Part shown: piece by piece, positions 3,554 to 48,093 of the stretch
Position numbering within the stretch: the first letter of the stretch is position 1
Layout of the letters: the number at the start of each line of letters is the position of its first letter
Assembly (NCBI GenBank): GCA_054600435.1
Contig: BAAIJX010000003.1
Span: forward strand, 124,001 to 188,000
From: Neophaeotheca triangularis
Taxonomy: Eukaryota
Direction of reading: 5' to 3'
Length of the DNA: 64,000 bases
Program-made: the position numbers and the translations under genes
The notes under the pieces: model-generated
Databases searched by the model: none
What the model was told of the DNA's origin: nothing
The model's input: the letters and a program-made list of their open reading frames with translations, nothing else

Positions 3554-3554
<1 letters not shown>

Positions 3555-3587
<33 letters not shown>
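3555..3587. repeat. (CA)n microsatellite, followed by a (TCAAGAG)x3 tandem repeat at about 3611-3634
   Basis: Directly visible: cacacaca... run and tcaagagtcaagagtcaagagtcaa. Confidence 0.95.
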
Positions 3588-3590
<3 letters not shown>

Positions 3591-7386: not shown

Positions 7387-7528
7387 AGAGCACTGGCTTT
7401 GCTTTTGTTTTTTCGCAATTGCGCGGGATAGGAATATTCCCTTAATATATTTCCCTCCCTTTTTATTTCATTTTCATGTTACATGGTGACACGTGGTTTG
7501 CGATACCCGGAGACTTGCCACACGATCG

Positions 7529-8570: not shown

Positions 8571-9532
8571 TACGAACTTTGCTGTTCGTGCGAGCCTGTT
8601 GTGTTCCTAAGTTGTTTTGTGAGTCTTGGTTGCTGCCATCGGTTCGAGGAAGGCTGGATAGGGTGCTGCGCGGACGTGTCCGGATTCTGTGCGTGTGTAT
8701 GTATATGTATATGTGTAAGTACACATATATGCGGGAACGTCACGGATAAGGTACGTAAGGTTAAGGCTGCCCTGTCATCGTTTCGTCGTCGCCCTGGGGA
8801 CGATTTGCTTATGGGTGTAATAGTACGAGTCGTACACGCATGCTCTGGCACGGGGTTTGGAGGCGGAGGCGCAGGCAGAGGCTGGGCGAGGGGCGGGCGT
8901 TGACGAAGCTCTCCGAACCGAGCTGATTGACACGGGGGTTTGAGTGTCGCATTCACGGGTGTTCGTCGCTATGCATGCGTGCTACGTTCGTGACGATCGG
9001 GAGAGGCGAGGGCCGTACTCGTGGCCCTTGACGACGGGCGCTTTAGGGGTCGGGGGGTTGGGTTTCGATCGGATATCGCTGCGTTCGATCCAAAGAAATG
9101 GGGGTAAGTCAGAATGATAGGGTCTTTTGGGCTCGTGGATGGGGTAAGGGCATCTTTCATGAGATTGGAGCTGCAGGCGCACCGCATATTCTGCAATGAG
9201 CCGGATCGCCGTTTTGAGAATGAATTCGTGTGATAGCGCCTCGCCTTGGACTACGTTATGACCCATGCAAAGATTGCTTTGGCTGACAAGACATGCAGAG
9301 TTTGTTGCTTGAGCGACTGGGTAAAGGTGACGGATCGGTGAAGACAAGACTTTTCCCCGTACGTTAGTCAAGAGGGAGTGGGGGGGTTCTTGGTTTTGGT
9401 CTTTGACACGAGCTGCGTGAAGGTCTGATGAGCACGACCCACTCAACGACACCGAGGGTTGGCGCAACATTCCGACTTCTCACGCGAAAGCTATGGATAC
9501 ATACCAATATACATACATGGAGCCTAGACTCT

Positions 9533-25307: not shown

Positions 25308-28300
25308 CTACCTCCTTCCCCCACCAACCGGAATCCCCCTCCCACCCCCAACAACCCCAGCCCCCGCCGCAGGCGGCCTAACCCCACCCGCACCACCCGC
25401 ACCCGCAGGCGCCCCTCCCCCGGCAAACAACAACTTGAAACCATTCTTCAACGCGCGCATGTCAGGGTAAGAGTTGCCAGCCAACTGGAAAGCGTTGGGG
25501 ATGATCTTGACGGGCCAAGCGGCGAGACGGGCTTGCTGACCGGCTTTGAAACACAATAGGAAGTAAGGGACTGCCGAGGGGTGGAAGCAGAAAGCGTACA
25601 TGCTGCGCTTGGGGTTGGCCGTGGTGTAGGTTGTTAGCCAGGTATCTGTGCAAGGAGGTTAGTATGATCCGGGATCCATTTGTTTGAACGCTATGTAGTG
25701 AAAAAGCTTACCAGTCTGCTCCCGACTCCCCTTTTGAAAGCGCTCATCCGCCATCATCTCGTCGACTTTGCGCGCCATGGCTTTGACGTGCAGCACAATC
25801 AACTCGTCCAAGTCTGAGTACGTCCACTTGCCGGCGATCTTCAGAGTCCTGCCGACGCTAAACTCATTCTCCTTGTCCAGCTCCAACACATCAATGTGGT
25901 TGTAAAGTCCATCGTGGACTTTCCAGGTGACGGCCAAATGGTCCAGTCCCTTAGAGCTGGGCCGGATGACGCAGTCGCCACGGGATTGGCCACCGAGGAA
26001 TTCTTCAGCTTGCGTGGAGTTGAAGGGGCGGAACAGGGGGTGTTTGATGACGCGTTGGGCGCGGCCGGTTTTGGCTTCGACGGCTTTGCGGAGCGCCTGG
26101 CGGTCGCGGGCTTCTTGCTCCTCGTCCCATTCGTCCAGGCCGTGGTCGTAGTGTTTGCGGTAAGGGTTGCGCATCTCATTGTCGCGGAGAGTGAGCTGGG
26201 CGGAGAACTTCTTACGGTCGATGAAGGTAAGTTTGGCCTGGATGGTTTGGTGTTGGGCCCAGACTTGGCGGGGCTCGAGGCCGCGCTCGCCGACGTTCTC
26301 GGGATATTCGGTTGACGAGACGCCGCCGTCGATGCCGCAGTCGAGTTTGACTTCGATGTGGTCGGGGAAGGTGCGTTTGACGCTGACGGGAACAATCATG
26401 CCTTCGGTGATGGAATCGCGGGTTTCGCCGGTAAGCATGGTGAAAACTTCGTCGGTGCTGAGGAAATTAAAATTGCGACGCAATTCTTCGTAGGGGACTT
26501 GGAGTTCAGCGCGGATGGTTTCGAGGGTTGCGCGCTTCTTTTGTTGGAATTGTCGCTCGAGTTGTTCGGCATATTGCTCGAGCAAGAGGTCATTGACACG
26601 GTCCTGAGCTTGTTCTTTGACAAGGCGGCGCAGGATAGCATTGGGTCCGTTCTCGTCGACTTCTGCTTTGATGTCTTCTTCATCAAGCTCGAGAGTGTCG
26701 GCGGCCATCTTGCGAGCAATGTCGTAGTCTTCTGGGTGAATACGGGTGTTGTCAAGGTAATCGGCCTCGGGCTCCGTCTCATCAAATTGAATGTAGAGAA
26801 AGCTGGCAGCATTCTCCCAGATTTTCGGACCAAGTGCCTGCTTGCGGCCCGTTTCAGGATCACCGACGAGGGAGTCACGGGTGATAACCTCGCCTCCGCT
26901 GTTGTTGATAACCTTGACCATCTGCTCCGCCTTTCGAGGGCCGAGACCGCAGACGTACGGCAGTAGATTGGCGACTCTCTGATCAGTGAGTGCGTCGTTG
27001 ACCTCGACACCAACCAAGTTGACCATGTCCACCATGGCAGTTTCTAGCTGCTTCATCAGGCGTTCAGCGGGGATCAAATGCTGATGCGGGTTGAATGCGA
27101 TGGAAGCAATGTCTTTGCCGAGACTGGCGTATTGCAAGATGGGGTCTTGCATGTAGTGTGCGAGAGAGATGGCATATCTTGTTAGAGGCGGTGTACCAGG
27201 GTGGTCGACAAGCGAGCGGTCAGAAGTGTGGTAGAGGCGAGCCACTTCATCGTTGACAATGATGACTTCAAGCTCATCCGCCATCTCCTTGTCAGAGCCA
27301 TCCACCTCTTCCTCGTAGGGTGTGCCTTTGAGTTCAAACTTCTCGATAATGTCCTGAACATCACGGTACAGCCTGCGGGTCTCGACCGAGAAACCGGAGA
27401 CAGCGACAACATCCGGCTTCCTGCGCTCGATGAGCTCGACGAAGCCTCGGACATCTTTGCCATCTTCAATGTACTTTTCCGCATTGCCCAAACGAAGGTC
27501 CTCGAATTTGCCATTTTCAAGTGCCTTGCTGTGCTCGTCGACGTAAGCCCAACAGATGGCGTCACCCTTTTGACCAGCACCGTTGGATAGAGCAAGCACT
27601 CTCGGGCTCGTACCCAGCTGCATCCCTTTTGGCTTGTAAGGTGCTTGATCCAGCTTTGCACTATACGCGAGACGACAAGCAGTAGCGATGTTGCGCTCGC
27701 AAATGTCCTTGATGTTCTCCTTCATTTGCCTGCCGAGGATGTGGTGGAGCTTCTTAAGCGCCAGATCCACGACCTCTCTACGGATACTGTTCCAGGCATC
27801 AGCGACCTCGGAAGAGTTGTCGGACTCGATGTGACGCTGCATGTCCTCTCTGATCCTGCGCTCGCTTGAAAGACGCACGCGAACCTCGACAAGACCATCT
27901 TGCTCCGCGCGCAGCATCTTCAAGAAAAGCTCTGGGCGCTGGACAAAGTTGCGAATCTCCTGACCACGAAGGTACTTGAATTCGTAGTAAGGGTGGTCTT
28001 CGTCAATCTGCTTGTTGCCTTTGTCGGTGCGAAAGACATCAAACAGCGCCTTGTCGTAGAAGATCTTGCGCATCACACGTCTCATGCGAGGGCTCATGGC
28101 GATCTCTTCAACCAACATCCTGCGGCCAGCTTCCAAGACATCCTGACCAGTCCTGTATTCGGGGTCCTGGATCAAAGTGTCGGCCATGTCGATTGGACGC
28201 ACGTCGGGGTCCTCGGTGTAGTTCTTGCGACCGGGAACAGACCTCTCAGCGTTTTGGGCAAGCGCGTCTGCAGAAATACCGAAGCTCTTGACCAAATGGT

Positions 28301-29741
28301 ACGCGTTGCCCGAGCGGACCTTGTCCCACAGAGTACGAACACCTCTTGCCCGCTTTTGCATGCCCTTCTCTTCCGCATCAGCGATAGACATGTCCTTGAG
28401 TCTGGCGGAGTATTGGAAGTTGAGGTAGTCCTGGATATCCTGTAGCTCTTCAAGAGTCTCGGCAGAAGGGATGAGATCATCAAAGACGGTGTCCGCAAAG
28501 TCTTCACTGCCGTCTTTAATTGCCTGTACCGACTTTTGAATAGCCTCGCGCTTCTCAATAAACGCCCTGAACTTGAGGTCCATCTCGAAAATCTCCCAAA
28601 GATCATCCTGGTTGAGTAGCTTTTGGGCTTTGGTGTCGTACGCGGGACCGTTCGGGTCACTCGAGGGGATCTGCTCGGAATGGATCAGGTAGTCCTTGCG
28701 GTGTTGGAAGATGAAGGGAACTTCGTAATCGCGGTGGTTCATGAAGTCGAGAACGTTGGCGACAGCATTACGGAATGGGCCGCGGAACTCGCCGTCGAGA
28801 TCCTTCTTCGGCCACATCAGAGCCACGATCCAGTTCGCTTCTTCGCTTGCGCGGTCGGCTTGGTCGTCTTCGGAGAGCTCGTTCAGGTCTTTGTATGGCT
28901 TCCTTGCGAGCTGGAACCGCTCCGGGACGTCGGTAATGCGGATAATGTTGTCCTCGTCCGTCAACATCTTCTCGACGAGCTGACTTGGCTCGAAGACATC
29001 CTTGAGTTCGAGTGGCTTATCCGGGTCTTGCAGATCGTCCCTGTTGGTATCCTCAACCTCCAAAGCCCATTCAAACTCATTGCCATCACCAAACGCAGCG
29101 CGCATATCCTCGAGATCGGCTTCATCGAGCCCGGAGTCTTTGAGATTTTGAATGTCGGCGAATCCAGGACGCGTGGGCCTTCTGACCTCCATCTCATCAC
29201 GGATGCGGTCCTGCTCTTCGTCCGGGAATTCGTCCTCCTCAATGAAGTCATCCATCTCGTTGCCAAAAGCACCACCAGCCCTGCGTCCCATACCCATGCC
29301 ATCTTCCTCATCATCGGAAAAGATGTTTTCGACGCCGCGAGACTCTGAAACAGACCTGTCCTCGCGATGGCCACGCTTGAGCCTCTTGAATTTACTCTCC
29401 TTGACCGGCTCGCGCGCAGGATCCCTAATCCCAATCAAGTCCAGATCTTCCTCATCCAAATCCTCATCTTCCTCACGCTCCTCGCGTCTACGCTTCCGCT
29501 TCTCCTTCCTGCGCGCGCGTCGCTCTTCATCGTCCTCATCCTCATCTACGATGAAACCCTCCTGGACCGCGCGCTGTGCCTCTTCATCGTCGTCTTCGTC
29601 TTCCTCGTCGCTTGAGTCGTCGAAACCGTTCTTACGGGATTTGTGCTGGCGATCAATGGGGTTGCCGTCGTCATCCAGTTCCTCTTCCTCTTCATCACTT
29701 CCGACTTCGGCGGCCATGTCGAACAGGGCTGGGTCTGCCAT
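25308..29741 (-). CDS. SPT6: Transcription elongation factor / histone chaperone Spt6
   Basis: complement(join(25308..25645,25712..29741)); intron GTAAGC...ACTAAC...CAG. Acidic N-terminus, [31 protein letters not shown] (HhH), [12 protein letters not shown]1 region, tandem SH2 (RVIKHPLF...IRPSSKG...[17 protein letters not shown]). Confidence 0.97.
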
Positions 29742-30306
29742 AGTGAAGGGTCGAATTGGTGTAGCAAACAGGTGTCAAGGGGTGGTATTCGGAGGTGCGT
29801 TTTGGCTGGTTGCGCCAGCAGCGGGGTTGGACTAGTGGTGTTTCAGTGGAAATATGCGGTATTGAAGGGAGTGAAAGTGACGTTGATTTTGTCAAGGGTA
29901 AGTAGGTATGGATTCGAGGGTGTGTAAGGTAAGGTACGGTAAGGGACTGTATGTTGCTGGAGAGGTCTTGTTGCTTTGCCAAAGGTAAAGGCAGCTACGA
30001 CAGGAGCCTTGGCGGAGGGCGGCTTTCCCGCAGAGCCGCGATGAGGCTTGGCGTCAATCAGTCACGTGCGTCGCGCATGTACCTACGTTGTACCTTAGTA
30101 GATGCACCCTTTATCAACATTACCTTAATGGCGAGATAAGACTGTCTCAAATGATCAATCTGCAGACATGATACATACCTTAATGTAAGCAAGTCACACT
30201 CACAATCAACTTACAGTACGAGAGTACAGTACCTACCTAGTTGGCGCAACATTGTCTTGGCTCTCCTATTCGCAGCCGCTTTCTAACGGGCCAGTCTCTA
30301 TGAGAA

Positions 30307-30345: not shown

Positions 30346-31235
30346 TAGGCAAGGTAAGTTATTGGTCCACTAGATGGAAGAACGAGACAACAATAATAAT
30401 GCCCAGGCAAGACGAAACAGTCGTCAACTGACTCGAGACATGACAAGCTGCCCTGCCCTGTAACAAGCTGAAGTTTGCGACCCCTGAATTGATACATACA
30501 TATACCTACTAGTAGTACTAGGAGGTATACTGAGTGGTAGATAATAATAACGAGTACTGTCCTCCTAATTTGAATCCCTTCCACCATTCACCACCACCTC
30601 ATTCTCATCGCTGGCCACTCTCATTCGACTCACAATACCAAGCGCCGTCAAGGTATTGTGAACGGGAGAGAAGTGACTATTGAAGCTTGGACAGCCAGTA
30701 CTTCCAGTAACCTACCAGGAGGTATCGCCCCCACCAGCTCAAGTACATACTAGTACTGTTTAACAAGACCCCTCGGCCGCATATATTAGCATCCTCGACC
30801 TCTACTCCTACCTCCCTACCTACCTTACCTACCTACACATATTACATATTATTTTCCCGGCCACAGTCTGCTTCAAAAACACTTCCACTCCTCCCCACGG
30901 AGCCACGACACCAAACACAAACTTGCTGAAGAGGAAGAAGTTGATCCTGACATTCGATTGCTACCCAACGCTTGCGTCACGCTGTTGGTATCCCGGCTAC
31001 ATCGCAACCTCGCACGCGCCCTGATCCTCATCTGGGTGACCGGCTTGATCGACTGGTTGGCCTCATGGCAAAGAATCACTGGTTGTGAACGTGAAAGAGA
31101 CAAAATAGCTAGGCGGCACTGCATGTCTGAACAGAGTGATCGCGACCGCATAGTCATTCTTGCGAGAGAACCAAACAACCTTCTGCTGCATTCCTACCGC
31201 CCTTGATACTACAGCCACCACTCCAAACCGCAACC

Positions 31236-33317
31236 ATGTCGGACGCCTTCAAAACCCGCACCATGAAGCGGAAAAACGTCAAAGGCCTCGCCCTCTCCGC
31301 TCCCGCTCCCAAACCCGTCCCTGCAGCAGGCGATGCCCAACTCCCCGGCGCCCACGGTAGCAGCGAACGCGGTGACACCCTTGAGATAGGGGTCGAGTTT
31401 CGACTAGACTTACGGAGCGAGGACCTTGTACCAATCAAAGAGCTGGGATCAGGCAATGGCGGGACCGTCTCAAAAGTCATGCACACGGCCACCAAGGTGG
31501 TCATGGCGAGAAAAATAATACACGTCGAGGCCAAGAGGGAGGTTCGGAAGCGGATTGTAAGGGAGTTGCAGATTATGTTTGAGTGCAATAGTCCGTATAT
31601 TGTCAGCTTTTACGGGGCGTTTATGAACGACGGAGGGGATGTCATCATGTGCATGGAGTATATGGATACAGGGTGAGTGCAGTGCCCTTTCTCCCCCTTG
31701 TGTCATGGCTATACTGACTGGACTTTTCACACCAGCTCCCTTGACTCCATCTCCAAAACCTTTGGCCCCGTCCGCGTCGACGTCCTAGGCAAAATCGCCG
31801 AAGCCGTCCTCGGCGGCCTAACCTACCTCTACCGCGCCCACAAAATCATGCACCGCGACATCAAACCCTCCAACGTCCTCGTCAATAGCCGCGGACAAAT
31901 CAAACTCTGCGACTTCGGCGTAAGCAGCGAACTCGACAACAGCGTCGCCGACACTTTCGTCGGCACAGGCACTTACATGGCCCCCGAACGCATCCAAGGC
32001 AGCCCCTACACCGTCAAAAGCGATGTCTGGTCTGTCGGCCTCACTTTAATGGAACTCGCCATCGGCCGCTTCCCTTTCCACAACACCTCCCCCGAAGACG
32101 ACGACGACGAGGAAGAAGCCGGCGGCCCACAAGGCATCCTCGACCTGCTCCAACAAATCGTCCTCGAACCCGCCCCCAAACTCCCCAAATCCGACGCTTT
32201 CCCGCAAATCCTCGAAGACGTGATAGCAAAATGCCTGATGAAAGCGCCGGAAGAACGACCCACGCCGCAAGAACTCTACGAAAGCGACGCTTTCCTGCAA
32301 GCCGCGAAGCGCACGCCTGTGGATTTGGAGCAGTGGGCTGTGAGCATGATGGAGAAGCAGAAACGCAAGAGCCACCTGGTGCCGCAGCTCAGTCCGGCGA
32401 CCAAGACTCTTCTCAAAAGCGACGACAACACGCCCAGTACTGCTTCGACTTCTGCGAGCACAGCCCCAGACCGCGCGCCCACGACTGGGGACATCCCGAT
32501 CGCTTCGTCGCAGCACCAACAACCGCAAGTGCAAGTGCAGACGCAAGCCCGGGAGCAGACGGCCAACGGCAGCGTCCACAACATCCCGACCGCAAACTCT
32601 ACCCCCGCAGCCCCCATGTACGACCGCCAACCCTCCCAACAACCGCAACCCCAGTCCCACCCGGCAGCAACCCACTCTCCCTTCCCCCCGCGCACAACAA
32701 GCCATAGCCATCAACGCGCCCCTTCAATCTCAGCTTCCCAATCTCAGCAACCCCAACCCCGGCAAGAACGATCCCACCACCACCATCCTAGTCTTCCGAT
32801 ACGTCCTGCCCCGCCTAAAAGCTCTTATAGTAGTGATAGCACTGGTAGTTTTGGGGGCAGTGGGCCAAGACCTAGTCGGAGGGTTGAAAGGGAGAGGGAG
32901 AGGGAGAGGGATGGGGGTGGGAGGGGATACGAAGGACGTGGTGGGGAGGGGAGGAATTACGAAAACAGAGGAGGGGGCGAAGGGAGGGGTTACGACGGCC
33001 GAAACTACGAAAGCCGAAGCTACGAGAACAGAGGCTTGCCAGATGCCCGGCGGACTCCGGCGGAAGCGAGCAGAGGCTACGATCACTACAGCAACAATAA
33101 TCCCAGAGGCTATGATGAACGAAGACCTTCGGCTGTTGAGAGCTATGGCGGATCCACTGGTGTTTCTTCCGCGGGAGGCAGTGCTCGGAGAGCGCCTCGG
33201 GCTGGCGGGGTGGGGGTGAGTGGATTTGGTGGTGCTGGAGGTGGGGGTGTTAATGGCGGTTCTTCTGGCGGCGTTGGCGGGGTATCCGGTGGTGCTGGTG
33301 GGGACGGGGCGTACTAG
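31236..33317 (+). CDS. STE7: MAP kinase kinase, Ste7/Mst7/Fuz7 type, about 672 aa
   Basis: join(31236..31672,31736..33317). N-terminal docking site MKRKNVKGLAL, GSGNGG loop, MARK, HRDIKPSN, DFG, activation loop SVADTFVGTGTYMAPER, SDVWS. Confidence 0.95.
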
Positions 33318-34447
33318 TGCCCCCGAGTTTGAAGGCTGGGACGGGGGGATTGGATTGGATCAGGTGCAGAGGGTACAGACCATGGTGGGAATGGCGGTTA
33401 TGTAAGTAAAGCGAGAGCCAAAGCATCAGTCAGCGCAATCAGAGCTGCTAAAGCGTTCCAACCCCCATGCCCTTCGTTGGGGGGTTTTTTTTTTTCTTTT
33501 CTGCCTCTTTCCACCTACCATCGTACCGCTTTGCTTCGCTTCACGCCGTCCGTACCTAGGTAACATATCACACAGTCCAGTGCGACCGGGCAGCCGCGCC
33601 ACTGACTTGCCAGCTCACGGTAGTGTAAGTAGGTAGCTTTCTTTCCCTTTGCTCCACGGTTTCGTTTCGAGCTGTACCGTAGGGTGGGGGGTTGGTGCCG
33701 CCGTCGCTGGCAGACGTACAAAACGGCACATGAGAAGCCTTCACCCTTTGCGGGAACAGCTCGACTCGGCACCACGAGCGGCATTGGCGCGTGCTTGATG
33801 ATTTGGAGAACTCTGCTCGCTGGTGTTGACTCTGACCTGGAAAGTCCTGAAGACAGGACCCCGGTTGCCGAGACCTGCGTGAAAGTTGAGGGGTTGGTGT
33901 TTACGTCGAGACTTAAGGATGCTTTCGTAGAAAACGGTGGGGGCGTGGCTACCGCTTCACTGCTTCTCGTTACTTCCTGGTCGTTGTCACCTTCGAGCGC
34001 CGATGGGAAGGAGATAGCTTGAAGGATAGGGTGGCTGTGGGACGCTCTCCGCTGCGACCAGAGCCCTGGGTCCCTAATGACAAAGCTTGGCTGTTCTGTC
34101 AAACGAGCGCGAGATGGCACATGGGCAAGGGATGGCTTCTTATTTGGCGGTCTTCACCAGGGCTCTGCTTCCTTCCAGCTACTACCTTGGAGATCCTGGA
34201 TCATGAAGGGCATCGAGTGGATCACACGATAGGCAGGACGCAGAACCCAAAAATTACGCCAGTTTCTAGTTGTGCCAGGGATGTGGATGAGCGGCGGTTG
34301 TGGTAAGTCATGAACCGCCTCAATTTAACTCCTACCAAAAACATGCACTACGAAACTAAAGCATTACCCCTGGGTATCATACAACCAACCAAGCAGCTCC
34401 AGCAACCAAAATGTCAAAAGCCCAAGCACCAAAAGAAGAAATCCGCA

Positions 34448-37400
34448 TCAAGCCGTGCCCCACACCCGCTTCGCCTTCATCGTCGGCATCCTGGGCCCTC
34501 GAAACTCCTCCGCCGGCCACCCCTGACTCGTACTCCCAGCCTCAACAACATCCCCAGCCATCACGAGCGTATGCTCTAACAAACACGAATCCGCTTCCAT
34601 CTTTGCGCCCGACAACAACCTCGACCCGGACCTCAAAACACTCCTGTCACCCACACTCAACTCGTTCAAATCGAACTTACCCCTAGTATTCACATGTCCG
34701 ACCAGACTGGCATCATCGACTGCCACCCTATCTCCCAGCGTTAACAGGTCCGGCTCCGTGAACATCAGACTCGGCGCGCCGCCGGCAAAGAGCGCGACGT
34801 CGTTGCCCAGACTCGCGCCCAGAGCGCGGAAGTAAGTGGCGATCCACCACGAGCCTGTCAACAGCCCTAGAATCCCGTGCCCACCATAGCAATGCCTGCG
34901 CAAAGTCTCGATCTTGAGGAAGAGCTGCCAGCGTTGACAGTAGGGAGATTTATCCCAGTCGTAGTTGCCCGGTTTGCGACGGCCGAGAAGGAGCCATTTT
35001 GCCGCGACGATGAGGGCGAGGACTAGCACCGACTGCGCGGTCATGAGGATGGAGATTATGGCTCCGAACATTAGGTAGAGGCCTAGGGGTCGGTACCATT
35101 GGGTTTCGAGGAGGTAGGCGTTGGTGTTGGAGTTTTTGTAGACGTTGGCGCAGATTTGCACGGCGCTGATGGAGGGGACGTTCCAGTAGATGGCTATGGT
35201 GGCGATGATGAGGGTGGAGTAGAGGGAGATTGTGGTTTGCGACCAGACGCGGTAGGGGGCTTGGTTTTGGTAGAAGGCGCGGCCGAAGGGGGAAAGAGTT
35301 TCGGTTGGTGGTTCGGGGTTTGAGTGCGTTTCTCGTGGTGCGACGTTCTTGTTCAGAGGCTGGGCGGGATGTTCCGTAAAGCCCTTTTCGAGGAGGTCGC
35401 TGCGGCTGGCGGAGGGTGTGGAGACTTCGGAGTCGTTGGGGGACTTGACGAGCGTCGTGGCGGAAGAGTTCATGCTTAGGAAGTTCGGCTCTGGCGCTTT
35501 CAAATCGTCGTAGTACTTGCTGGCTCTCTTTCCCGGAACGGTGGTATTTGCAAGCGTTCCCGAAGTCAGGCAAATGGCCTCTCCGTTTTTGCTGCCTACC
35601 CATGTCGTCTCGGATGGGTAGTGGGCATTGCGCTTTGTGAGAGCTCCGCTGCCCATGATAGTCTTCTCGCCAAGGCTTGAACCGGGAAGCAGCACCACTC
35701 TATCGGCAACCATGGCACTATCGCCTATGCGCACGCGATCGGTGCCAGTACCATCCGAGGTTACTATGCTTGCGCGAGAGCCAAAGACTACGTCGTCGCC
35801 TACTTCTAGCAAGTCGTGGTTCTGGATCGAGGGACCAGTACCAGGCCAGTAGACACGCTGACCGACTTTGGCACCTAGAGCTCTCATCATCACGGAAGTG
35901 GCCTCGTAATGGCTACCAAACAGCTCAGACAATTTGTGGAAGCGCGGTGCCGGCATGAGATCTTGTATCAGCTGCAGGCGGAATTTTTCGAGGCTGGACC
36001 TTTGAGCAGTGCTACTGGACTTGATTGTCCCCATGAAGAGATCAAAGGCTTTCTTGACGAATAGTACCGCGGCAAAGTAGAATGCTGGACCGAAAGTAGC
36101 GTGAGCGGCGAAAGCAAGATACTACGAAAAATTAGCTCATATTTAAGGCGATGGTGACGGAACTGACAACTTACATGATAGCCTACTCTCTCCGGATAAG
36201 CGAACCAAAGTATGACCGCGCGGACTGCATCGGGTATCCTCTCGTCTGGACGCCTGCGCACTAGAGCTACTAGGCATGCCAGCCAAGGGAGAATACCGAT
36301 GAATTCCACGGCAGCACGTATCGGCAGTCCAAGGAAGAGTTGCAGACTCCAATGAGGCGCGGGGATTCGACTGGCCGCAAGATCCCGATTCGCCTCCTCC
36401 GCACTCTTGATCTCCCAACTCGACGAGTTTGGTCCAATGCAAGCATTTGCTGGTACATTGGTTCCAGCCGCAACGATTGAAGCTAAGCCAATGGAGCTGT
36501 TGGCCCCGAGCGTGATACGTCCAAGATACATGGAAGTGTTGCGTTCAGCCGCAAAGGGACGAACGATGCATCGTTCCAGCACCGCATTGTCCTCTATAGT
36601 AAGAAGGTCATATTCCCCGAGAGTGGCGCCTTTCGCTATAGTAACGCTGTTCCCGATCTTGGCGCCCATCAGCCGGTAGTACCAAACCCGTGAAGTGTCT
36701 GTAAGGTTGAAAGCGCCCTTGCCCGCGATGCCGATGGCTTTTTGGCAGATCCACCAGCGGGTGTGGTAGGATGACCACATCGGGTAGAGGCCTTCGCGGT
36801 AGCGACCGATGATTATCCATTTGAAGGCAATGGCCAGAAAGGGGGTGATGAGTTTCACAGCAGCGTTTGCTACTAGCAAGGAGACGACGAGGTTGACCAG
36901 CCGACCGAGCACGATATCGTTGGTGTACCAGCGTTGGGTGTAGGCGAGAAAGTAGACGAAAAAGGTCCAGGTCAAGGCTCGCTTCGCGGGGAAGAATATC
37001 ACCATAGGTAGCAGTTGTATCGCCAGGATGATAGGGTTGGTGGAGCTGCATGTCTCCTCGCAACCTGGTAGGAGCTCATCTGTTTCGGTTGATGCGCTAG
37101 CGGACCTGGGGTCCTCTTTTGAGCTTCCCATTTTCTCCTCAATCACTACGGCCAGGTCCGCAACTTTGCGGTTGATGAAAAGCGCATCGATTGGCAGCCG
37201 GATCTTGAACTCTTTGCGAAGTGCGGAAAGGAGCTTCCCCGCTCGCATGCTATCGCCGCCGAGCTCGAAGAAGTCGGATTGAGCATTGACAGTAGTGGAA
37301 GGTAGTGCCAGAATCTCGGCGAAGATGCCAGCTACGATTGCCACCGTTGAAGATGCATGCACCTGACTCCCCTTGAGTCTGGGCTCAGCGGTGGGCAAAC

Positions 37401-39678
37401 GGCCGAGACAGCTCTCATCGATGGAACCATTGGACTTCCGCGCGAACGGGGTCTGCAGAGTTTTGATCGTGGATGGGAGATTGTAGCCGTCGAGTTGGCT
37501 CCTCAATGATTGCAGCAAGCTGTGGGCCAATTCCTCAGTGACGCCAGAGGCACTCGTTTCTTTTGGTGCGAGCCAGAGATCTGGATGACATTCTCTGGCC
37601 TGCACTCGAGGCACGCAGACCTCTATTTCTGATCCCAGCAAGCCCGTAGCCGCTTCAAGTAATGTTTCATGGGAAATTAAGACCTTGCGGCTTGCGACCT
37701 TCTGGCTCAAAGGAGTGTTCGGCGGGGGACAAACAGCTTCGAAAAGCCTATCCACTGTTAAAGTAGCGTCCGAAATCGCCGGAAGGTCGAGACGCTCCGC
37801 AAGTTTGATGCGAAGCACTTTGTTATTGTTTGTCGGTAGACCGCCCTCCATGTAGACGATCAGCACCGGCACTTTCACAGAGCTCAGAGAAGATTTGACT
37901 GAATCCTGAACGTCGCGGAGCGAAGGCCGAGGCACATTTTCGGGAACGACTACCGCGATACCGACCACTTCTTGCAGAACGTCGTGGTTGACCGAAAGAG
38001 CCAAGGCCTTGCTGATTCTCCCAGCGGTTGGTGAAGCGGGATCCGACGCGGCAGCAACGACCGCGTCTTCCACCTCGAAAGGGCTGATGAGTTCTCCACC
38101 GCGGTTGATGACCTCCTTGCTCCGACCGGTGATGAACAGGTATCCTTCAGAATCCACATACCCCATGTCACCGGTATCGAAAAAACCATTTGCAGTGAAG
38201 CAAGACTTGTCAATGACGTTGCCAGCCTTGAGATATCCAGCAAAAACAGGAGAGCCCCGAACACTGACGCGGCCAATATCCCGAGTCTCTGCGGGTCGAT
38301 TGCTGCCATCCAGGATTGCTATCTCAGGCCCAACACTGACACCAGATGTGCCCGTCTTTTGAAGTTGATAGTCCAACGGCGGCGTTGAAATGGGCATGCA
38401 TTCAGTCATACCGTAAGAAGGCAAGACAATGCATCTCCGACCGCCACTCGAGAACGCGTCCCTAATCTGACAAGCCAAGCTCGGCAGCAAACCCCCAGCA
38501 GCATTGCAGACAAGCCGTATCTGTGACTTCTCCACACTCTCCGGGCGGTCCGCACCAGCTTCCAAAATACACTGATGCATAGAAGGGCTGGCATAGTACC
38601 ATGTAGGCGCATAGTCTTCGACGCAGTCCCAGAAGGCGTTGGCGTCGAAAGCGCTACAGCAAATGACGGAACCTCCGGAAATGACGGGGGCAAAGAGGTT
38701 GCGAATCAGGCCTCCGACGTGATTGAGAGGCATTTGATTCAGGCAGCGCATTGAAGGTGAAAGACCCCAAGAATCGATGACCATGGCGACGCCGCACACC
38801 ATGGAGTGCACGCTGAGTGGTACCAGCTTTTTCGTTCCAGAAGTTCCACTCGTGAAGAGAAGAATCCCGGTATCATCTGGCGTATTCGGTACAGTCGGGT
38901 TCGAGATGGGAGGGAAAATAGACCCTTCAAGATCTCGGAGCGTTAGCCTCATATCGTTATCCAACTCGGCCAACACGACATTGATTCCAGCGTCGGTAGT
39001 CCAAGAGTCCCGCAGCCCAAGTCTCTGCACATCTCCTGCCTGCGCAATTACCAGACTTGTTCCGGACTGTAGAACATCCGACTTGAACTGCTCAGCGCCA
39101 ACACCAGTGCCATGTGCAACGGGAGCCGCAGTGTAGTATGAAGCTGTTGCCAGGACGGTCATAGCTAGAAGCGGGCCATTGGGCAAGGAAATCGCCACCA
39201 CTGGGCGAGGGAGGTGTTGTTGTATTTGTAGCGGCAAGCCAAAGGTTCGCAAAGACTCGGCCAGACTTGAATGAGAAACGTGACGGCCACTTTCGGGATC
39301 GATGAGAGCAGGAGCGTGAGACATTGGCTGTAAAAGGTCTAGCAGGGATCGGTAAGTGCCCTTGCATTTCTGTAGAACTCGTCTGGCATGCTGGTGGCCC
39401 GCGACAGAGTGGCCGCTCTTGCTGTCTTCCGGCAATTGCTTCCATAGCTGGTTGTACTTCTGTTGTACTTCCAGTATTGGCCAGCGTCCGGGAAGGCCTT
39501 GCAACAAAGCCCCAAGGGTGCTTAGTGGTCCATGAGAGGGAGATTCGAGTGTCGGGATAGCTTCTAAAAGCCTGCGCTTATCATTGTCTGGCGTGACAGT
39601 TTGCAGAAAATGGCTGAAAAGCCTGACTTCGTTCTCGAGCAAATGATCAGTTTCAAGTAAGTCAGAGAGATTCGCCAT
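34448..39678 (-). CDS. Membrane-bound NRPS-like synthetase: adenylation domain, carrier (T) domain and three TM/left-handed beta-helix repeats (Pls/PosA-type terminal region), 1725 aa
   Basis: complement(join(34448..36121,36175..39678)); a 53-nt intron GTAAGT...GCTAAT...TAG fuses the 1236-aa and 528-aa ORFs. A-domain motifs FTSGTSGTKK, YGMTE, FFDTGD, ITGRSKEVINRGGE, PTNNNK. T domain DFFELGGDSM. Repeats YYRLMGAKIG / MRALGAKVG / YFRALGASLG, each followed by hexapeptide-like runs and separated by hydrophobic helices. Confidence 0.9.
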
Positions 39679-41560
39679 GGCGTCTCATCAGGGTCGAAAG
39701 CGTTGAACGAATGTGGTATATTGCTGAAAATAGCGAAGGAACGACAAGAATGACGCTCAGTCAAGAGGTCTACCAAGCAATAGCGACAGTTGGAATTGAG
39801 AAATATTAGTAAATCTAGAAATCGGTGCAAAGCAGACCTACACAGAAGAGTACATTCGGTCGGACAGCTTGAGTTATACATCAGCCCACCGGAGACGTTG
39901 TCCTCGATCTTCTAGAGTTATAAGGGATTCTGCTAGCCATACTGGGAGCATATCCCAATGGAGATGCAGCGTGGGTTCCCTCATAAAATCCGCCTGTTGT
40001 TCCAAATGTGGTCGGGATTTGGCGCCCGTGCGACTTAACTCCTGTGCATTATAATAGTCAAAGGCCATGGCCCATGAAGTCTCGCGAGTCGTAGTTTGCT
40101 GGAGACTGAGTGGACGTGGGTGGGTTTCCCGCAAAGGACTACTGTGGGGGTTCCTGCAGATGTTTCTTTACTTGCGGATGCATTGCTCGGCGTCAGCCGT
40201 CCAAACTTTGTCGAGGTGCGAAAAGGTGAACTTTGATTTTGATGGCCGTAGTAAGCTGTCCGATCTCGGTATCAATGGGAGTTCTCGCTCGATTTATCGA
40301 ATTTTTCCAATTCAATTGTGCGCCACGAGCGAAAGCGTGGCACATGTGGGAAAGAGTGCCCGATGTTTCCGTCGATATCAATTGGAAAGAGATTACGTTG
40401 GAGCAAAAATGCCGGAACCAGGAAGCTGATTAAGGTTTGTTGACCCGTTTAGCTTGACCGCGTTCGGTCCTTCGGTTTATAAACAAGTTTAAACATGCCG
40501 GACCGTTTCCGGGGGGTTAAAAACCACACGGTATTGTTGAACAGGGATAGCTGCTAGACCAACGAATGGTAGGTAGCCGGAGCTTCCAAAAGTCAATCGG
40601 ACTTGGGAGTCACGGTCTCTCGCCGACGCGGTGTGCACGCAAGGCGGAATTGACCTTTCCATGAAGCTGCGATGCGCAAGCCGTGAGAGGCGCCAGGGGA
40701 GAGGGATAGCCGGCGACGTCCAATAAATACCCAATGCGAGGTCCTAATCAGGTGAGATACTGGACGAGGGCAGCGTAAAGATTATTGGCGTCGGACGAGC
40801 CTTGGACTCGGGAGGGAGTGGGCGATGACCTGGGGAGCTGCCACCAAAGACAAAGACAACGAGTATGTGGCGGAGCCTGAAAACAATAGTTTCACCGGCA
40901 GTGGAGTCTGCAGAAACATTGTTTCCAGAAGAATGGGCGAACGTTTTAAAGCATGTTAGGAAGAACTAGTAGTATGTATTATTTGCTGATCACGCCTGAA
41001 GTCAGAATAGGGGAGGCTTGGCGCCATATAAAAGCTCGAGCCTCTAGGTATCCATGGATGTTGAGTTTGAGGTCGTCCGCAGTGGAGGAATATATTGTTA
41101 TTTTTATTACTATTGAACCTCGGTGCGGATTTACACGCTACGCTACCTTAGCTGAGCCTTGATTGTCGTCAACCACTATGTACTCTCAACGTTGCAATCA
41201 ACATCAGGCCCAATGCCTCGATTCTTACCCGTGCTTGGTTGCGTAGAGCCCCGTTGGTGTCCTTCAAGTATTTCCTGTCTTGTCTTGGGGGCTCGACTGG
41301 GACGTTCTTACCTCGTGATTGCTGGAGAAGCAATACTGCCCTGTCAAGTAGGTAGGCGATGTGATTTACCATGGGGAGATGGCAATGATACAGGGCATCG
41401 AGGACGACACGGGTGATCTAATCAGGATATTTCATCGTCAAAGCTGTGCTTATCGCGAGGTGCGCTTTCAGTGAGCATTAGCCGATACTCATCATACAGG
41501 CGGCATTCATCAGACATGCCGGCTTCTGGTCAAGGTCTGGATCCTCAACTAACCAGCACA

Positions 41561-42836
41561 TCAACCTTCTTTCCCAAACGGTGTCAGACCCTTGCGATAT
41601 GGTCTCTCCAACTGCGCCACCCTTTCGGCGTCGAATCTCCAAACACCGCAAGTATTCTCCGGCTCCAGCTTCTCCCCAATCATGCCCAACAGCTTCTCCG
41701 CAACGGGGTTGGTATTTTCCTTGCGGAAGAACAGCGCTTTCCACGCCTCCTCGCTCGTGTCCGAGTGCTTGCGTAGCTCACGTTGCGAATTCTCGAGTTC
41801 GTTTTTGTTGTCCGAGACGGCCTCTGCAGGAGAATCAAAATTAGCAACTTGCTCGGCCTCGAGACGCTCGAGTTCGAGCTCGAAAAGGCAAGCACTCACG
41901 CATATCCCCCTTATGCAAAGCCTGAATGACCCCCTGCCACGCCCGCCTCGACTCCCACGGATCCTGCGTGCTTAACTCGGGCGTAGCAAACTCCGTCGCC
42001 TTCGCGTTAGCAACATCATACTCATCCACTTGCTTCCCGCCAGCATCCTTGAACACGAATTTCTCACTCCAACTCCCCTCGGCCGTAAAAAGCGCCTTCT
42101 CCCTCTTCCGATCCTCAGCCCGATAAACCCCAGCCTGCACATGATTCTTCTCGCCCCCAATCCCCAACATACCCTTCCCCGTAAAATCCACGTGCGCAAC
42201 CAACCCCGACGAACTTACCAGCTCATAACTCCCCTGCAACTCGGGATACGGCTGGCCAGACACGACGCCCTTGACGCGAATATTCGGCAGGGGGACCAGG
42301 TAACTCTCATCCCCCCAAGCCTCGAGCGTCATAACCGCGTGCCCGATCTGCTGGATATTCACACTCCCACTAAACGTAATCTCCTGCCTCGTGTAGCCCT
42401 CGGCTCTAACACCGGCCCGCGAGTTCCACAAATAACACGCCGTGACGGGCGGATGATGGCTGACTTGCTCGGCGACCAGACGCGTCTCATCGCCCTCGCC
42501 ACCTTCACCCTCAATCTCGCCGAGAAACAACTCCCCCAGGAAGGCATTCAGCGGTTTCTTGATGCCCTCGCTCGGCTCGCGGCCCGCGTACTGCTGGCTC
42601 TTGAGCGATGACAGAAACCACTTGAGGACCGCGAGCATGCGTTTCTCGGGGGTCTGCTCGTGGGTCGGTGCGCAGAAGAGGGTCGGGTGCTCGATCCAGT
42701 AGCGGGGGAACTCGGTGGTGGATTTGTCGGCGAGCACGAAGGGCGGCGCGGTGATGTTGCTTAGGTCGCCTTTGAGCGTTGCTATTGAGGCGAGGAATTC
42801 TTTTAGTCCGCTGCGGTGGGATTCGTCGGTCGCCAT
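41561..42836 (-). CDS. Oxysterol-binding protein, short Kes1/Osh4-like, about 399 aa
   Basis: complement(join(41561..41823,41900..42836)). Motifs GDLSNITAPPF, KKPLNAFLGE, the OSBP signature EQVSHHPP, and WESRRAW. Confidence 0.93.
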
Positions 42837-43527
42837 TGTAGGGTTTGGTGGTTTGTTTGGGCTTCTGAGCGTGTAAGGTGGGGGATGTGGGGGTTGCGGG
42901 TGGTGTTGGAGTGGTGGTTGGCGATTTCTTCCGTGAGATTATGTACAAGTAGCCTTCAAACTCCAGACGCCGTCGAATGTCGTGTGCTGTGTTTCTACGT
43001 TGATTGATTCGTACGTAGCAGGTTTCGTCCGTAAGCAAGACAGGAAAGGTTCATGTCCACCTGGGCACCTAGCTCTAAACGACAGTCAAATGTCGTCATT
43101 CCAACCTCTCTTTCACATGCGCCGACTCCACAGTACATCTGCTCAGGGCCAAGATAAGGTAGGATGAAGATCTAATCGCGATATTCGTGACTATCTAGAT
43201 ATGAAGACTACCTAGTACCTTACCTAGGTAGAGAATAATCATCAACGACTACTCGCGCCGGAACAGGACGAGGCAAAAACATGATATCACAATCATGTCG
43301 CAACCGCGTTATTTGAAACTTCTCTGTGTGAGACAAGCGCCATCCGAGAGCGGCAGCCCTTCCCTGAATTACTCAGAACGCTCAAAACATCCTCCAACCC
43401 AGAATCAAACGGTCGACCGACCAACCGAGCCATAACCATCTCAACTGCTCGCTGCCAAAGCCTTTCTCATCAAAAGCAAACCCGCGACCTCCTCGATGCC
43501 CTAAATCGTTAAAGAATTAAAGGCCAC

Positions 43528-46500
43528 CTACTCAAACTTTCCCACTCCCCTCAACCCCCCAGCCATGCCACCCTCCCCCCTCCTTAACCTAGCCATCCGC
43601 TCAGTCTCCTCCCTCCTCCTTCGCGTCCCAGCCTCCAGAATACCTCTCCGCTCCTCAGCCCTCGCGGCATAAGCAAGCGAACTCTTGCCGCCGCCGCTAC
43701 TCTTCTTCACCCCAGAACCACCTCCGTCGGCTGTAGCTTCGCGACGCAAACTGCTGCCGTTGGAAGTGCTGACGCCGCGGTCGTTGATAGCGGTTGAAGA
43801 GGTAGTCGCGCGTCGGAGGAGCGAAGGGACTGCGCGGCTTGTGGTTGGCGTTGAAGCTGCCCAGGCGGAAGCTTTGCCGTGGGAGCTGGAGTTGGAAGAG
43901 TTGGAGCTCGCACCGCGGCGGAGAGAGAGGCGGTCGACGACTGAGGCTCGCGCGGCGGGCGTGCGGCGGGCAGAAGCGGGTGCGCGGGGTGGAGGCATCA
44001 TGGCACGATCGGGCGCGAAGCCGCCGTCGTTGGCGCGGTTGGCTTCGTCGTCGACGGCGGCTGCGTCCTCGGTTTCGAGCACGCTGGTCTCAAGTTCATG
44101 AGCGCCTGCTGCGTTGTAGGCTTTTCCGTCTTCGGATTCGGAGTCGGAGGCTACGTCCGAGGAGGCATCCAGGGCAGTGGGGCCTGCAAGCTCGGCAGGA
44201 TGCGGTTCTTCGAGCAGGAAGCTGAGGGATTCTTGGATCTGATTTAGAGAGGTTGGGCGAGTGAGGCTGTTGGCGGTTTGGTTGCTGCGGCGCTGCTTTG
44301 TGGGAGGCTGGGATTGCGATTGCGAGGCTTCTTCGGTTGAGAGGCGGCGTTTGTTGCCGTTGCTTTCCTGCAGGGGCATCGGGGCGTTTCTCTCCTGAGT
44401 AGGTTGACTCTCGTCCTGGGTCAAAGGCGCAGTACCAGCGTCGTCTTCCACGTCAGACAATCCAATAAGCTCGTCATCACCATCATCGTCGGCGATGGCC
44501 TTGAGGAAAGCGTCTTTGCCCTTGCTCCCCTTGCCTTCAGCCAAACCCGCCAGATTTTCGTCCTGGAGCAAAAGCTTCCTCTTCCGCGCCTCCTCCCTCT
44601 GCCTCATCTGCCTTCTACGAACCGCAATGTCATCCTCATCTTCATCCAGATCAAAAGCATTGGCTTGCTTCCGCCTCAATGCACCCGTAGTCAGGTCCTT
44701 GTACAATCTGCTCGTCTCGGCCTCATCCGCCTGCCGCTGGCGTTCGGCGAAATGTGCAGCAAGAGCATTCTCATCGACGTCGACATGGCCGGAGTCGATC
44801 ATTTCCTTGTCTTGCTCCGTTTCTGGCGCCACAAAGTCGTCGCCACCAAGCCCGGCGTACTCGTCTTCGGACTCCTCGGCTTGTTCTTCGAGCATACCTT
44901 TCATTTCCTTTGCCGCTTCTGCACGCTCGGCGGCTGTCAGGGCTTCTTTTCTGCGACGGGCCATTTCGCGGAACGCATCGGATTGTTTCGCGGCTTGAGG
45001 GGCTTCCTCCTCTTCGTCGCTTTCGTCCGCTGCAATAGCTTTGTGGCGAGAGAGACGGCCGCGCTTGCGCACCTTGTCAGATGCAGGTCGCGGTGACTCG
45101 CTAACACGCAAGGGCACCGTCGATTGGGTTTCGTGCTCCTCTTCTGGAACGGGATCGAGAGTGCTCTCTCTACGAATTTCGAGGGGTGCGGGCCATGGTG
45201 AGTGAATGCCTTGGTCCTGTGTAGGCTCCCAGCCGGGCGTCTCGCTGAGTGCCGATGGGCCTCTGTTGAGCGCGGGAGCAGGAGTTTCGGGAGCTTGAGT
45301 CTGCCAAGTGAGGTCGATACGTTGGGACTCTGGCGCTTGACTGCCAGACACAACACTTCCCTGACTTTCATTTTGAGTGTCCCCAAAAGACTGCTCTGGC
45401 ATTGTTGGCGGCAAAGAAGACGTTGAAGGCGGAGGTAGTTGTCGGTAAAGCGCCATCGAGTCTTCTTGAATGTCTTGAGTCGGAGTCTGCATCGTTGCGT
45501 GGAAAGCTTGGGTCGGACTCATGAGAGCATCATTCGAGCCATTTCCGAAGTTGAACGCTGCGAAAGGGTCTTCATCATCTGCTGCGACAATAGGCGCCTC
45601 TGCAATCTCGGCGTGATCTATCTCGAGATCGTTGTTGTCTTCGTCGTCCTTGACTACGCGGGATGTGCGAGACTTGCGGGGTGCTGGTGTCCTTATTGTG
45701 GCATCCTCTGGTCGCGTCATTGGTCTGATAGTCTCGTCACCAGCAGCTTCGTGCTCCCCGTTTGCAGGCTGAATTTCCTTGGTGAATTCTTCCTCTCGAT
45801 CATCGTCCTCTTCCTCCTCTCCTTCCTCTTCATCGCTTTCCTCAGCGATCTCGTCGACCAAACCCTCCCCATCTTCAGCCCCGCCCATTTCTTCGTCGTC
45901 ATCGCCACTGCCAACATAGTCCTCATCCTCATCTTCGTCACTACTCACAGCAGCCGCGCCCTCGACACCCGCCTCTTTAGCAGCAGCTTTCTCCGCCTTG
46001 CGCAAGTCCGTCGCCTCCCTTCTCGCCTTCTCCAACAAATCTTCATACTCCTCCGCGGCACGCTCCCTTTCTTCAGCAGTCTGCACGACAATACCCTTCG
46101 CCTTCAACTCCTCGAGGCGCTCTTGCTGCTGCTTCCGCGCCTGCTCTTTCGCTTTGCGGCGGAGTTGGGCCTCGAGTACTGAAGCACCGATGCTAGGTTT
46201 GACACCTCGTTTGCTCGGCTTGGAAACGTACGCGCCGATGTGGGAAAGATGCTTGAGGTTATGAATGGCTTTGTTATCTTCGCTAACTTTCGCTGATACT
46301 GGGCGGATGTTGTCGAAAGCACGTAGATGGCGAGGCATTGGCTGAATGATCTCAAGGTCATCATCGTCGCTATCGAGGTGGATGGGCTTTCGAGGCTTTC
46401 TGCCTAGCTTGCCGAGCTTTGGTTCCTTCTTCTCGGGTGCTGCGGCGGGTGCCTCTTCTACCTCTGGTTTCTGCTTTCGCGATGAACTCAGGATCTGGGC

Positions 46501-47643: not shown

Positions 47644-48093
47644 TGTGTTCGGCGGTGGTGTCTGGTCGTCTGGTCTATGGCCGTATTTGGGTATACCCAC
47701 TAGATCATGACGTGATGAGGCACTGATCTGGCAAAATTGTTTGAGAAGTGATATGGTGGATCCGTTGAAGTGATATTGTCGAGGAGAAGCTGAAGTTATG
47801 CTGGTTCTGTCTGTACTGTCGGTAGAAAGTTGGTGGTTGGAGAACGCGTGCTGGACGCGAAAGGCTAACACGCTAGCGGAATTTCCTCGGATGGGACGTA
47901 TGATTGATGGCATTTCACGTTTTAGTTAAAGCCCGCCCTTAGATTTGATGGGAGTCAATCAATTTGCGGAGTTTGAAGACTTCACCTCCGAGCTCTCTGT
48001 GTTTCGTCCCGTCTCTTGTCTCTAGCTAGAACTGAAGCTTTTGACCTTGCATGCTACCAACAACCCGTCGCATGGCGTGAGTGATTATCATAT

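Follow-up and report, generated by a model that had tools for sequence, protein, structure and literature searches.

A candidate counterpart of the Aureobasidium polymalate synthetase in Neophaeotheca triangularis

Introduction

We examined a stretch of 64,000 nucleotides from the fungus Neophaeotheca triangularis (assembly GCA_054600435.1, contig BAAIJX010000003.1, positions 124,001 to 188,000 of the forward strand). This whole stretch is called the window and all positions below are counted in it. On its minus strand, at 34448..39678, lies a gene for a 1725-residue membrane protein of the nonribosomal peptide synthetase-like (NRPS-like) type. Its sequence suggests that it is probably a stand-alone iterative membrane synthetase and the Neophaeotheca counterpart of the polymalate synthetase (PMAs) of Aureobasidium.

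Polymalate is a polyanion that can be biodegraded and is of interest in biomedicine. The PMAs gene of Aureobasidium melanogenum was reportedly described by Wang et al. in 2020. To our knowledge, it is the only synthetase gene that has been named for polymalate, and it was named on genetic evidence.

Results

The gene and its parts are as follows. Transmembrane helices are abbreviated TM, the three hexapeptide-repeat units are C1 to C3, and the basis of each assignment is given in brackets where one applies.

34448..39678, minus strand: whole gene, ATG to stop, for the 1725-residue synthetase (open frames and spliced translation)
36175..39678, minus strand: exon 1, residues 1-1168
36122..36174, minus strand: intron of 53 nucleotides, GTAAGT...CTAAT...TAG, in the TM3-TM4 loop after His1168 (sequence, frame and ungapped BLASTP junction)
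34448..36121, minus strand: exon 2, residues 1169-1725 and the stop codon, its coding part ending at 34451
37789..39318, minus strand: adenylating (ANL) domain of the acyl-CoA-ligase type, residues about 121-630 (Pfam, NCBIfam and relatives in the PDB)
38707..38736, minus strand: QMPLNHVGGL, residues 315-324, with His320 as the pantetheine-tunnel gate (alignment to Arabidopsis AAE3, AtAAE3)
37150..37335, minus strand: carrier (T) domain, residues 782-843, with GGDS at 807-810 and Ser810 at 37249-37251 (Pfam PP-binding)
36808..37041, minus strand: TM1 and TM2, residues about 880-957 (hydropathy scan)
36349..36807, minus strand: C1, first hexapeptide-repeat unit, residues 958-1110 (TIGR02353, hhalign)
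36259..36345, minus strand: TM3, residues about 1112-1140 (hydropathy scan)
36056..36112, minus strand: TM4, residues about 1172-1190 (hydropathy scan; AlphaFold helix at exon-2 residues 2-30)
35570..36043, minus strand: C2, second hexapeptide-repeat unit, residues 1195-1352 (weak Hexapep, TIGR02353, hhalign, and an AlphaFold ladder of short strands with high pLDDT, the predicted local distance difference test)
35291..35569, minus strand: poorly conserved linker rich in Ser, Thr and Pro, residues about 1353-1445 (pLDDT below 50, no consensus in the family alignment)
34988..35239, minus strand: TM5 and TM6, residues about 1463-1546 (hydropathy; AlphaFold helices at exon-2 residues 295-330 and 344-378)
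34451..34987, minus strand: C3, third hexapeptide-repeat unit, residues 1547-1725, with TEPDL (Glu1624) and His1644 (34694-34696)

The two long open frames of the minus strand, 35968..39684 and 34448..36121, are joined exactly and in frame by the GT..AG intron at 36174..36122. The exons encode 1168 and 557 residues. A protein search returned P0003, annotated as a hypothetical protein of N. triangularis, which equals the spliced translation letter for letter. The exon junction (RVGYH/YLAF) is crossed without a gap in BLASTP against the Aureobasidium homologue P0125. The splice model thus rests on splice signals, reading frame and conservation, and the single spliced protein proposed in a preliminary description of the sequence is upheld by the intron and by P0003.

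The intron is the sole one of the gene and sits in the short TM3-TM4 loop, just after the invariant His1168 of a conserved WFAxPxRVGxH. This loop is predicted to be non-cytoplasmic, and its conserved residues may line the route by which the polymer leaves.

In Pfam, residues 121-483 match AMP-binding (E 3.4e-44) and residues 782-843 match PP-binding (E 8.8e-13). The only other family found is a weak Hexapep match, its 23.1 bits being below the 27-bit cut-off. The Pfam scan of the 1725-residue protein contains no condensation (C), thioesterase (TE) or reductase (R) domain. The core motifs are intact, namely the P-loop TSGTSGTKK, SYGMTEC, TGD, GRSKEVINRGGE, Lys620 and GGDS. Ser810 is invariant in all 28 aligned homologues.

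The Kyte-Doolittle scan gives hydrophobic segments at residues of about 880-900, 925-957, 1112-1140, 1172-1190, 1471-1489 and 1522-1540. On the scan and the structural model, these are six predicted membrane helices arranged as three hairpins that separate the soluble units C1, C2 and C3. Positively charged residues follow TM2 (KWIIIGRYR), TM4 (VKK) and TM6 (KWLLLGRRK), which suggests that all soluble parts face the cytoplasm.

The three units are homologous to one another, and hhalign gives them probabilities of 97.6% for C1-C2, 97.8% for C1-C3 and 90.8% for C2-C3. Their profiles were cut from a family alignment of 28 sequences, chosen for spread among the best 120 search rows described below. 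An AlphaFold2 model from a 45-row alignment covers the exon-2 part from TM4 to C3, and C1 is tied to its fold via hhalign. The model has a mean pLDDT of 83.2 and a predicted template modelling score (pTM) of 0.78. It places three long helices at the expected TM4, TM5 and TM6 and ladders of short strands in C2 and C3, and exon-2 residues 191-270 are disordered with pLDDT below 50.

Foldseek against the PDB returned 31 matches to this model at E <= 0.001. Maltose and galactoside O-acetyltransferases are at the top, followed by serine acetyltransferases and then gamma-carbonic anhydrases. As modelled, C2 and C3 have the left-handed beta-helix (LbH, hexapeptide) acyltransferase fold. Compared by sequence with solved structures, exon 2 yields weak LbH matches (best E 0.039; 16 rows at E <= 1) and no Pls-type membrane module. 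The layout of adenylating domain, carrier with GGDS and three TM-separated hexapeptide units, devoid of C, TE and R, is hence the one that the preliminary description had read, now from Pfam, hydropathy with six helices in three pairs, hhalign and AlphaFold.

The C3 residues His1644, Glu1624, Pro1625 and Glu1684 do not vary in any of the 45 alignment rows. Among them, His1644 and Glu1624 are the likeliest catalytic candidates.

The nearest folds raise the alternative that the protein is no homopolymerase and that its carrier-bound acid is transferred once to a cell-wall polysaccharide, a lipid or a protein. Sugar and serine O-acetyltransferases are single-transfer enzymes, and wide conservation would suit a housekeeping role at the cell surface. 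Fungal polymalate, moreover, occurs within the cell membrane and can be polysaccharide-bound, according to the accessible text of one review (PMC9210645). However, no enzymes other than iterative polymerases of the Pls type are known to have triplicated C1-C3 units with six membrane helices, a canonical Pls has the TEPDL...H pattern of C3 as well, and PMAs deletion in Aureobasidium is reported to abolish the free polymer. We consider the single transfer improbable.

The membrane half was compared with the Pls/PosA family, the epsilon-poly-L-lysine and delta-poly-L-ornithine synthetases. The family model TIGR02353 scores 92 bits on exon 1, where its profile positions 4-192 match residues 889-1086, and 102.3 bits on exon 2. 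Both scores fall short of the curated 423.1-bit cut-off. When bacterial genomes were scanned with the exon-2 alignment, 96 pattern matches gave 11 loci, and one of these loci (L011) is a canonical Pls/PosA that served as the control, with 860.4 bits by TIGR02353 and 433 bits by the amino-acid adenylation model TIGR01733.

By BLASTP, the carrier and membrane part of the Neophaeotheca protein aligns with the control at 24% identity over 680 columns (E 1e-26), and C3 at 31% over 173 columns. The adenylating domains of the two gave no BLASTP alignment, and the best 25 families for exon 1 do not include TIGR01733. As far as these scores tell, the membrane half is genuinely but distantly related to Pls/PosA, and the match of this type that was looked for in the C-terminal half is present.

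Both share the order of adenylating domain and carrier, TM1-2, C1, TM3-4, C2, TM5-6 and C3, with neither C nor TE domain. The membrane modules are about 24-31% identical. The adenylating domain is of the amino-acid type in Pls/PosA but of the acyl-CoA-ligase type here, and the Neophaeotheca protein is about 400 residues longer. By analogy, the expected bond would be an ester instead of the isopeptide of Pls/PosA.

A product like epsilon-poly-lysine, made by a poly-amino-acid synthetase of the Pls/PosA type, would account for the common layout and for a TIGR02353 match that is significant. Yet that match is far under both its cut-off and the score of the control, and the adenylating domain gives no BLASTP alignment with that of the control and has NHVG where FDxS is expected. 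With the sub-cut-off TIGR02353 and the non-amino-acid adenylating domain, this reading was rejected as highly unlikely.

The adenylating domain itself scores best with a FadD7-type fatty-acid-CoA ligase model of NCBIfam (199 bits), and a malonyl-CoA synthase model gives 130 bits, all its acyl-CoA-ligase scores being far below the equivalog cut-offs. The closest solved relatives are oxalyl-CoA synthetases, from Lathyrus (6qjz, E 6e-53), Arabidopsis (AAE3, 5ie0, 1.4e-50) and yeast (Pcs60, 8aff, 9.3e-42). Malonyl-CoA synthetases rank after them in the PDB search, at E of about 1e-26. By these relatives, the domain belongs to the short-dicarboxylate branch of the ANL enzymes. Its earlier assignment as a carboxylic-acid-type domain agrees with both the models and the structures.

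This PDB ranking is used in place of a tree of the domain with Pcs60 or AAE3, as a search at the "shorter" length for stand-alone relatives found mostly fragments of the protein's own family.

QMPLNHVGGL aligns with ...SLAFDMS of a canonical Pls, with NHVG in place of FDMS, so that the Asp of the amino-acid type is absent. The preliminary description had noticed this replacement of FDxS correctly but placed the motif one base off its position at 38707-38736.

According to the accessible part of a study on AtAAE3, its oxalate pocket consists of Val215-His216, Cys288-Ser289, Ala313-Met314, His319 and Lys500, with Ser289 and His319 specific to the oxalate enzymes and His214 as the tunnel gate (PMC8905533). 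These residues were mapped onto the Neophaeotheca protein through a HMMER alignment, with the following correspondences.

AtAAE3 His214 (gate): His320
AtAAE3 Val215-His216: Val321-Gly322
AtAAE3 Cys288-Ser289: Ala393-Ala394
AtAAE3 Ala313-Met314: Gly423-Met424
AtAAE3 His319: Pro429
AtAAE3 Lys500: Lys620

AAE3, LsOCS, Pcs60, MatB and the Neophaeotheca domain all have the gate His and the catalytic Lys. The oxalate determinants Ser289 and His319 of the oxalyl-CoA synthetases are both replaced, by Ala394 and Pro429, and the neighbouring His216 by Gly322. Because both oxalate-specific residues are replaced and the pocket residues are smaller, the pocket appears larger and not that of an oxalate enzyme. 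It fits an acid larger than oxalate, without naming which.

AAE3, Pcs60 and LsOCS are soluble stand-alone enzymes of 514-543 residues, whereas the domain here is followed in the same chain by a carrier and a membrane module of about 850 residues. Its acyl acceptor is presumably the carrier and not CoA.

An oxalate-CoA ligase or peroxisomal CoA synthetase is what the database names of several homologues would make of this protein, and its best solved relatives are indeed oxalyl-CoA synthetases. Such an identity is nevertheless hardly credible and was rejected, both oxalate residues being replaced and the soluble enzymes having no such membrane fusion. The names "Oxalate--CoA ligase" and "peroxisomal-coenzyme A synthetase" are carried by homologues of 1640-2075 residues (P0011, P0019, P0022, P0431-P0433, P0443, P0444, P0449 and P0450). 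Both names are probably wrong, because the Neophaeotheca protein and the aligned homologues are without the oxalate-binding residues and the proteins are membrane synthetases.

The mapped pocket positions Val321-Gly322, Ala393-Ala394, Gly423-Met424, Pro429 and Lys620 recur unchanged in the Aureobasidium protein and are almost constant among 28 family members. A further alignment of 13 rows holds 12 ANL-type proteins, four of them bacterial, and canonical Pls. Nearly all 12, from bacteria to fungi and including Aureobasidium, retain the motifs MPLxH(V/A/I)GG, CNAAG and SYGMTECMPI, and canonical Pls departs from all three motifs.

The protein search with exon 1 gave 975 matches among 8000 scored candidates. 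The best 120 of the 975 are nearly all 1500-1870 residues long with the same three Pfam domains, and come from Dothideomycetes, Sordariomycetes, Lecanoromycetes, a relative of Orbilia and chytrids. An exhaustive phmmer search with exon 2 against 1.84 billion representatives gave 1331 matches at E <= 0.001, of which 613 reach E <= 1e-10 and 202 reach E <= 1e-30. Each of the 45 new representatives with at least 1300 residues also matches the adenylating domain, at 25.8-53.7% identity.

Among 20 names retrieved for them are Trametes (Basidiomycota), Halteromyces (Mucoromycota), Aspergillus avenaceus, Verticillium, Epichloe and Lecanicillium. Outside the fungi, the same 20 include the alga Mesostigma viride, the protist Artemidia motanka and a Myxococcota bacterium.

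Two of the family are divergent members, P0156 (Epichloe bromicola, 1702 residues) and P0176 (Lecanicillium saksenae, 1365 residues), and are distinct from the published Epichloe epsilon-poly-lysine synthetase. Their adenylating domains are 32% and 26% identical to the Neophaeotheca one, with no acyl-CoA-ligase match in NCBIfam at E <= 1e-10. Possible reasons are a decaying or altered adenylating domain or errors in the gene models.

Four other bacterial proteins from the genome scan, which represent four phyla (Novosphingobium, Planctomycetota, Myxococcota and Kitasatospora), have a FadD7-type adenylating domain and TIGR02353 scores of 166-209 bits, again below the cut-off. The bacterial homologues share the ANL-type domain, the pocket motifs and the carrier with the Neophaeotheca protein but are shorter, with 1472-1588 residues. 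The one of Novosphingobium is 32% identical to it over 1694 columns. At that locus (L002), an open reading frame for a phosphopantetheinyl transferase (7934-8866) stands directly after the homologue (3451-8055). The bacterial loci L002, L006, L009 and L010 have no other shared neighbours.

The IQ-TREE phylogeny was a quick search (LG+G4, SH-aLRT support) on 38 hand-chosen rows, rooted on canonical Pls. A bacterial ANL-type clade (98) stands apart from a eukaryotic clade (97). Within the latter, the order Mucoromycota, Basidiomycota, Eurotiomycetes, Sordariomycetes, Lecanoromycetes and Dothideomycetes approximates the species tree. The Neophaeotheca protein falls within a 13-row Capnodiales-type clade (100), which adjoins the clade of Aureobasidium and Myriangiales (100) inside the Dothideomycetes. 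A FastTree phylogeny of 103 rows, 72 named and 31 unnamed of at least 1400 residues, agrees.

In both trees, some rows lie inside or beside the Dothideomycete or Capnodiales clade against their species position, namely P0026, P0034 (Xylariales), P0061, P0071 and the chytrids P0090, P0093, P0097 and P0115. Xylariomycetidae FL0641, for instance, is placed with Extremus (99), Dactylellina (P0061) with Kalmusia (P0071) (99), and the chytrids (100) are in a Dothideomycete polytomy. Gene transfer, assembly contamination or uneven evolutionary rates are possible causes.

BLASTP aligns the Neophaeotheca protein with the A. melanogenum protein P0125 from end to end, with 52% identity over 1685 columns. 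The sole Aureobasidium cluster in the searches has 126 members of 1685-1690 residues, 50-52% identical to the Neophaeotheca protein end to end. All seven partial proteins of A. melanogenum tested are 96.8-100% identical to P0125 and so represent the same gene, and no second close paralogue was seen among these seven fragments. Judged from this identity and the tree, the Neophaeotheca gene is an orthologue of the Aureobasidium one. The tie to Aureobasidium is hence stronger than the preliminary description could know, with the end-to-end identity and a shared Dothideomycete lineage.

The synthetase is flanked by genes for Spt6 (25659-29774), a protein kinase (31140-33317), an oxysterol-binding protein (41841-42938), Mrc1 (43528-47925) and a pentatricopeptide repeat (PPR) protein (48085-51060). 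By their predicted products, the flanking genes are housekeeping ones. Tailoring, transport and regulatory genes typical of a cluster are absent among the neighbours, as had been said of the tailoring genes before. Two flanking open frames, 33515-34153 (minus strand, 212 residues) and 40058-40429 (plus strand, 123 residues), are without a Pfam match.

Two motifs, GNGGCKCA and CAGCCAC, are quoted as Crz1 promoter motifs for PMAs in the accessible text of PMC11286673. The former has one copy upstream of the synthetase (40319-40326) and 17 in the window against 22.8 expected. The latter has none within about 2 kb upstream and 13 in the window against 10.4 expected. Both are at chance level and were not used.

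Elsewhere in the window, the GC skew is -0.29 at 24001-26000, and the AT skew is about -0.26 to -0.28 at 44001-48000, over the Mrc1-like gene.

Discussion

The published PMAs of A. melanogenum (QHD40385.1) is described, in the accessible parts of three papers, as a 5049-bp gene with an adenylating-like, a carrier and a condensation-like domain, six membrane helices and no TE (PMC9210645, PMC11286673, PMC11905612). In the same parts, its deletion abolishes polymalate and it is regulated by Crz1. In A. pullulans NRRL 62031, PMAs is the core of an antiSMASH "NRPS-like" region showing only the adenylating and PP-binding domains, as a supplement legend states (PMC11905612).

The Aureobasidium homologue found here (P0089/P0125) is very probably this published PMAs, to go by its length, domains and "NRPS-like" filing. 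Six homologue clusters among the matches listed are likewise named "putative NRPS-like protein biosynthetic cluster", and the filing of the family as NRPS-like or NAPAA was judged from database names only.

PMAs and the Neophaeotheca protein are alike in their adenylating-like, carrier and condensation-like parts, six membrane helices, lack of TE, length of about 1680-1725 residues, stand-alone genes and NRPS-like filing. They differ in species and order. We give a probability of roughly 60% to the gene being a stand-alone iterative membrane synthetase and the Neophaeotheca counterpart of PMAs. Malate as the substrate, the ester bond and the export of the product are inferred from the same comparisons.

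Several points weigh against this assignment. Malate is not derivable from the sequence because there is no specificity rule for the pocket. Residue 319, next to the gate, is Asn in the Neophaeotheca protein and most close relatives and Phe in Aureobasidium and the bacteria. The family occurs in many fungi that are not known for polymalate, and we know of no report of polymalate from Neophaeotheca.

The others concern the published gene. The name "PMA synthetase" is absent from the 15 of the 126 Aureobasidium cluster members listed, from 120 rows of the search with the Neophaeotheca protein and from 120 rows of that with the Aureobasidium protein. QHD40385.1 itself is absent from these rows and from the PMC11905612 supplement, and the Atlas names are generic only. 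A. pullulans has a separate "NAPAA" region and hence a second Pls-like gene, by the accessible text of PMC11905612. The published evidence on PMAs is genetic and not enzymatic, according to what is accessible of the reviews.

The same machine and chemistry may then serve another monomer, such as another hydroxy acid, malonate or succinate, so that the product is not polymalate. This would agree with the silence of the sequence on the substrate, with the oxalate and malonate used by the nearest characterised relatives of the adenylating domain, with the difference at residue 319 and with a family far wider than the known polymalate production. But the remaining mapped pocket positions are shared with Aureobasidium and hardly vary across the family, and the tree makes the two genes orthologous. 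We regard another monomer as unlikely, less so than the single transfer to an acceptor.

For a counterpart of PMAs, the mechanism would run as follows. The ANL domain would adenylate a small hydroxy-dicarboxylic acid, the likeliest being L-malate activated at its beta-carboxyl. The acid would then be handed to the carrier, on whose Ser810 the phosphopantetheine arm sits. C1-C3, cytoplasmic units of the O-acyltransferase fold held by the three membrane-helix hairpins, would move the acyl group onto the hydroxyl of free malate or of the growing chain. The donor would be malyl-S-carrier, the nucleophile a hydroxyl and the product bond an ester, which matches the O-acyltransferase fold of the C units.

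In Pls, the monomer is adenylated, loaded on the carrier and moved by C1-C3 to a free acceptor, so the chain is untethered and TE is unneeded (PMC7179176). Likewise, the polymer here would never be covalently bound and would need no TE. The polyester would be released at or through the membrane.

Within the window, this is an ordinary gene that had been read correctly from its letters. It adds a probable PMAs counterpart from a halotolerant black yeast to an enzyme type that is already known. Candidate functional residues can be named for it, which are Gly322, Ala393/Ala394 and Pro429 of the pocket, Ser810 of the carrier, and His1644 and Glu1624 of C3.

Four points may be unpublished, namely how wide the branch is, its bacterial membership, where its adenylating domain came from and the probable misnaming of homologues as oxalate-CoA ligase. 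The literature search gave only the reviews cited here, subscription papers and supplements being outside its reach.

In summary, the PMAs-type proteins appear as a distinct and widely conserved branch of the Pls superfamily, with bacterial members and a conserved pocket derived from enzymes like the oxalyl- and malonyl-CoA ligases. Since the acid-binding pocket is almost invariant across the groups, all members of the branch may make the same polymer. This ANL-type branch appears old and is widespread, being found in Mucoromycota, Basidiomycota, several ascomycete classes, chytrids, a streptophyte alga, a protist and bacteria. We suggest, tentatively and as a doubtful extension, that its one polymer, polymalate or a related polyester, might be a common overlooked polyanion of the cell surface or the extracellular space and no speciality of Aureobasidium, Physarum and Penicillium.

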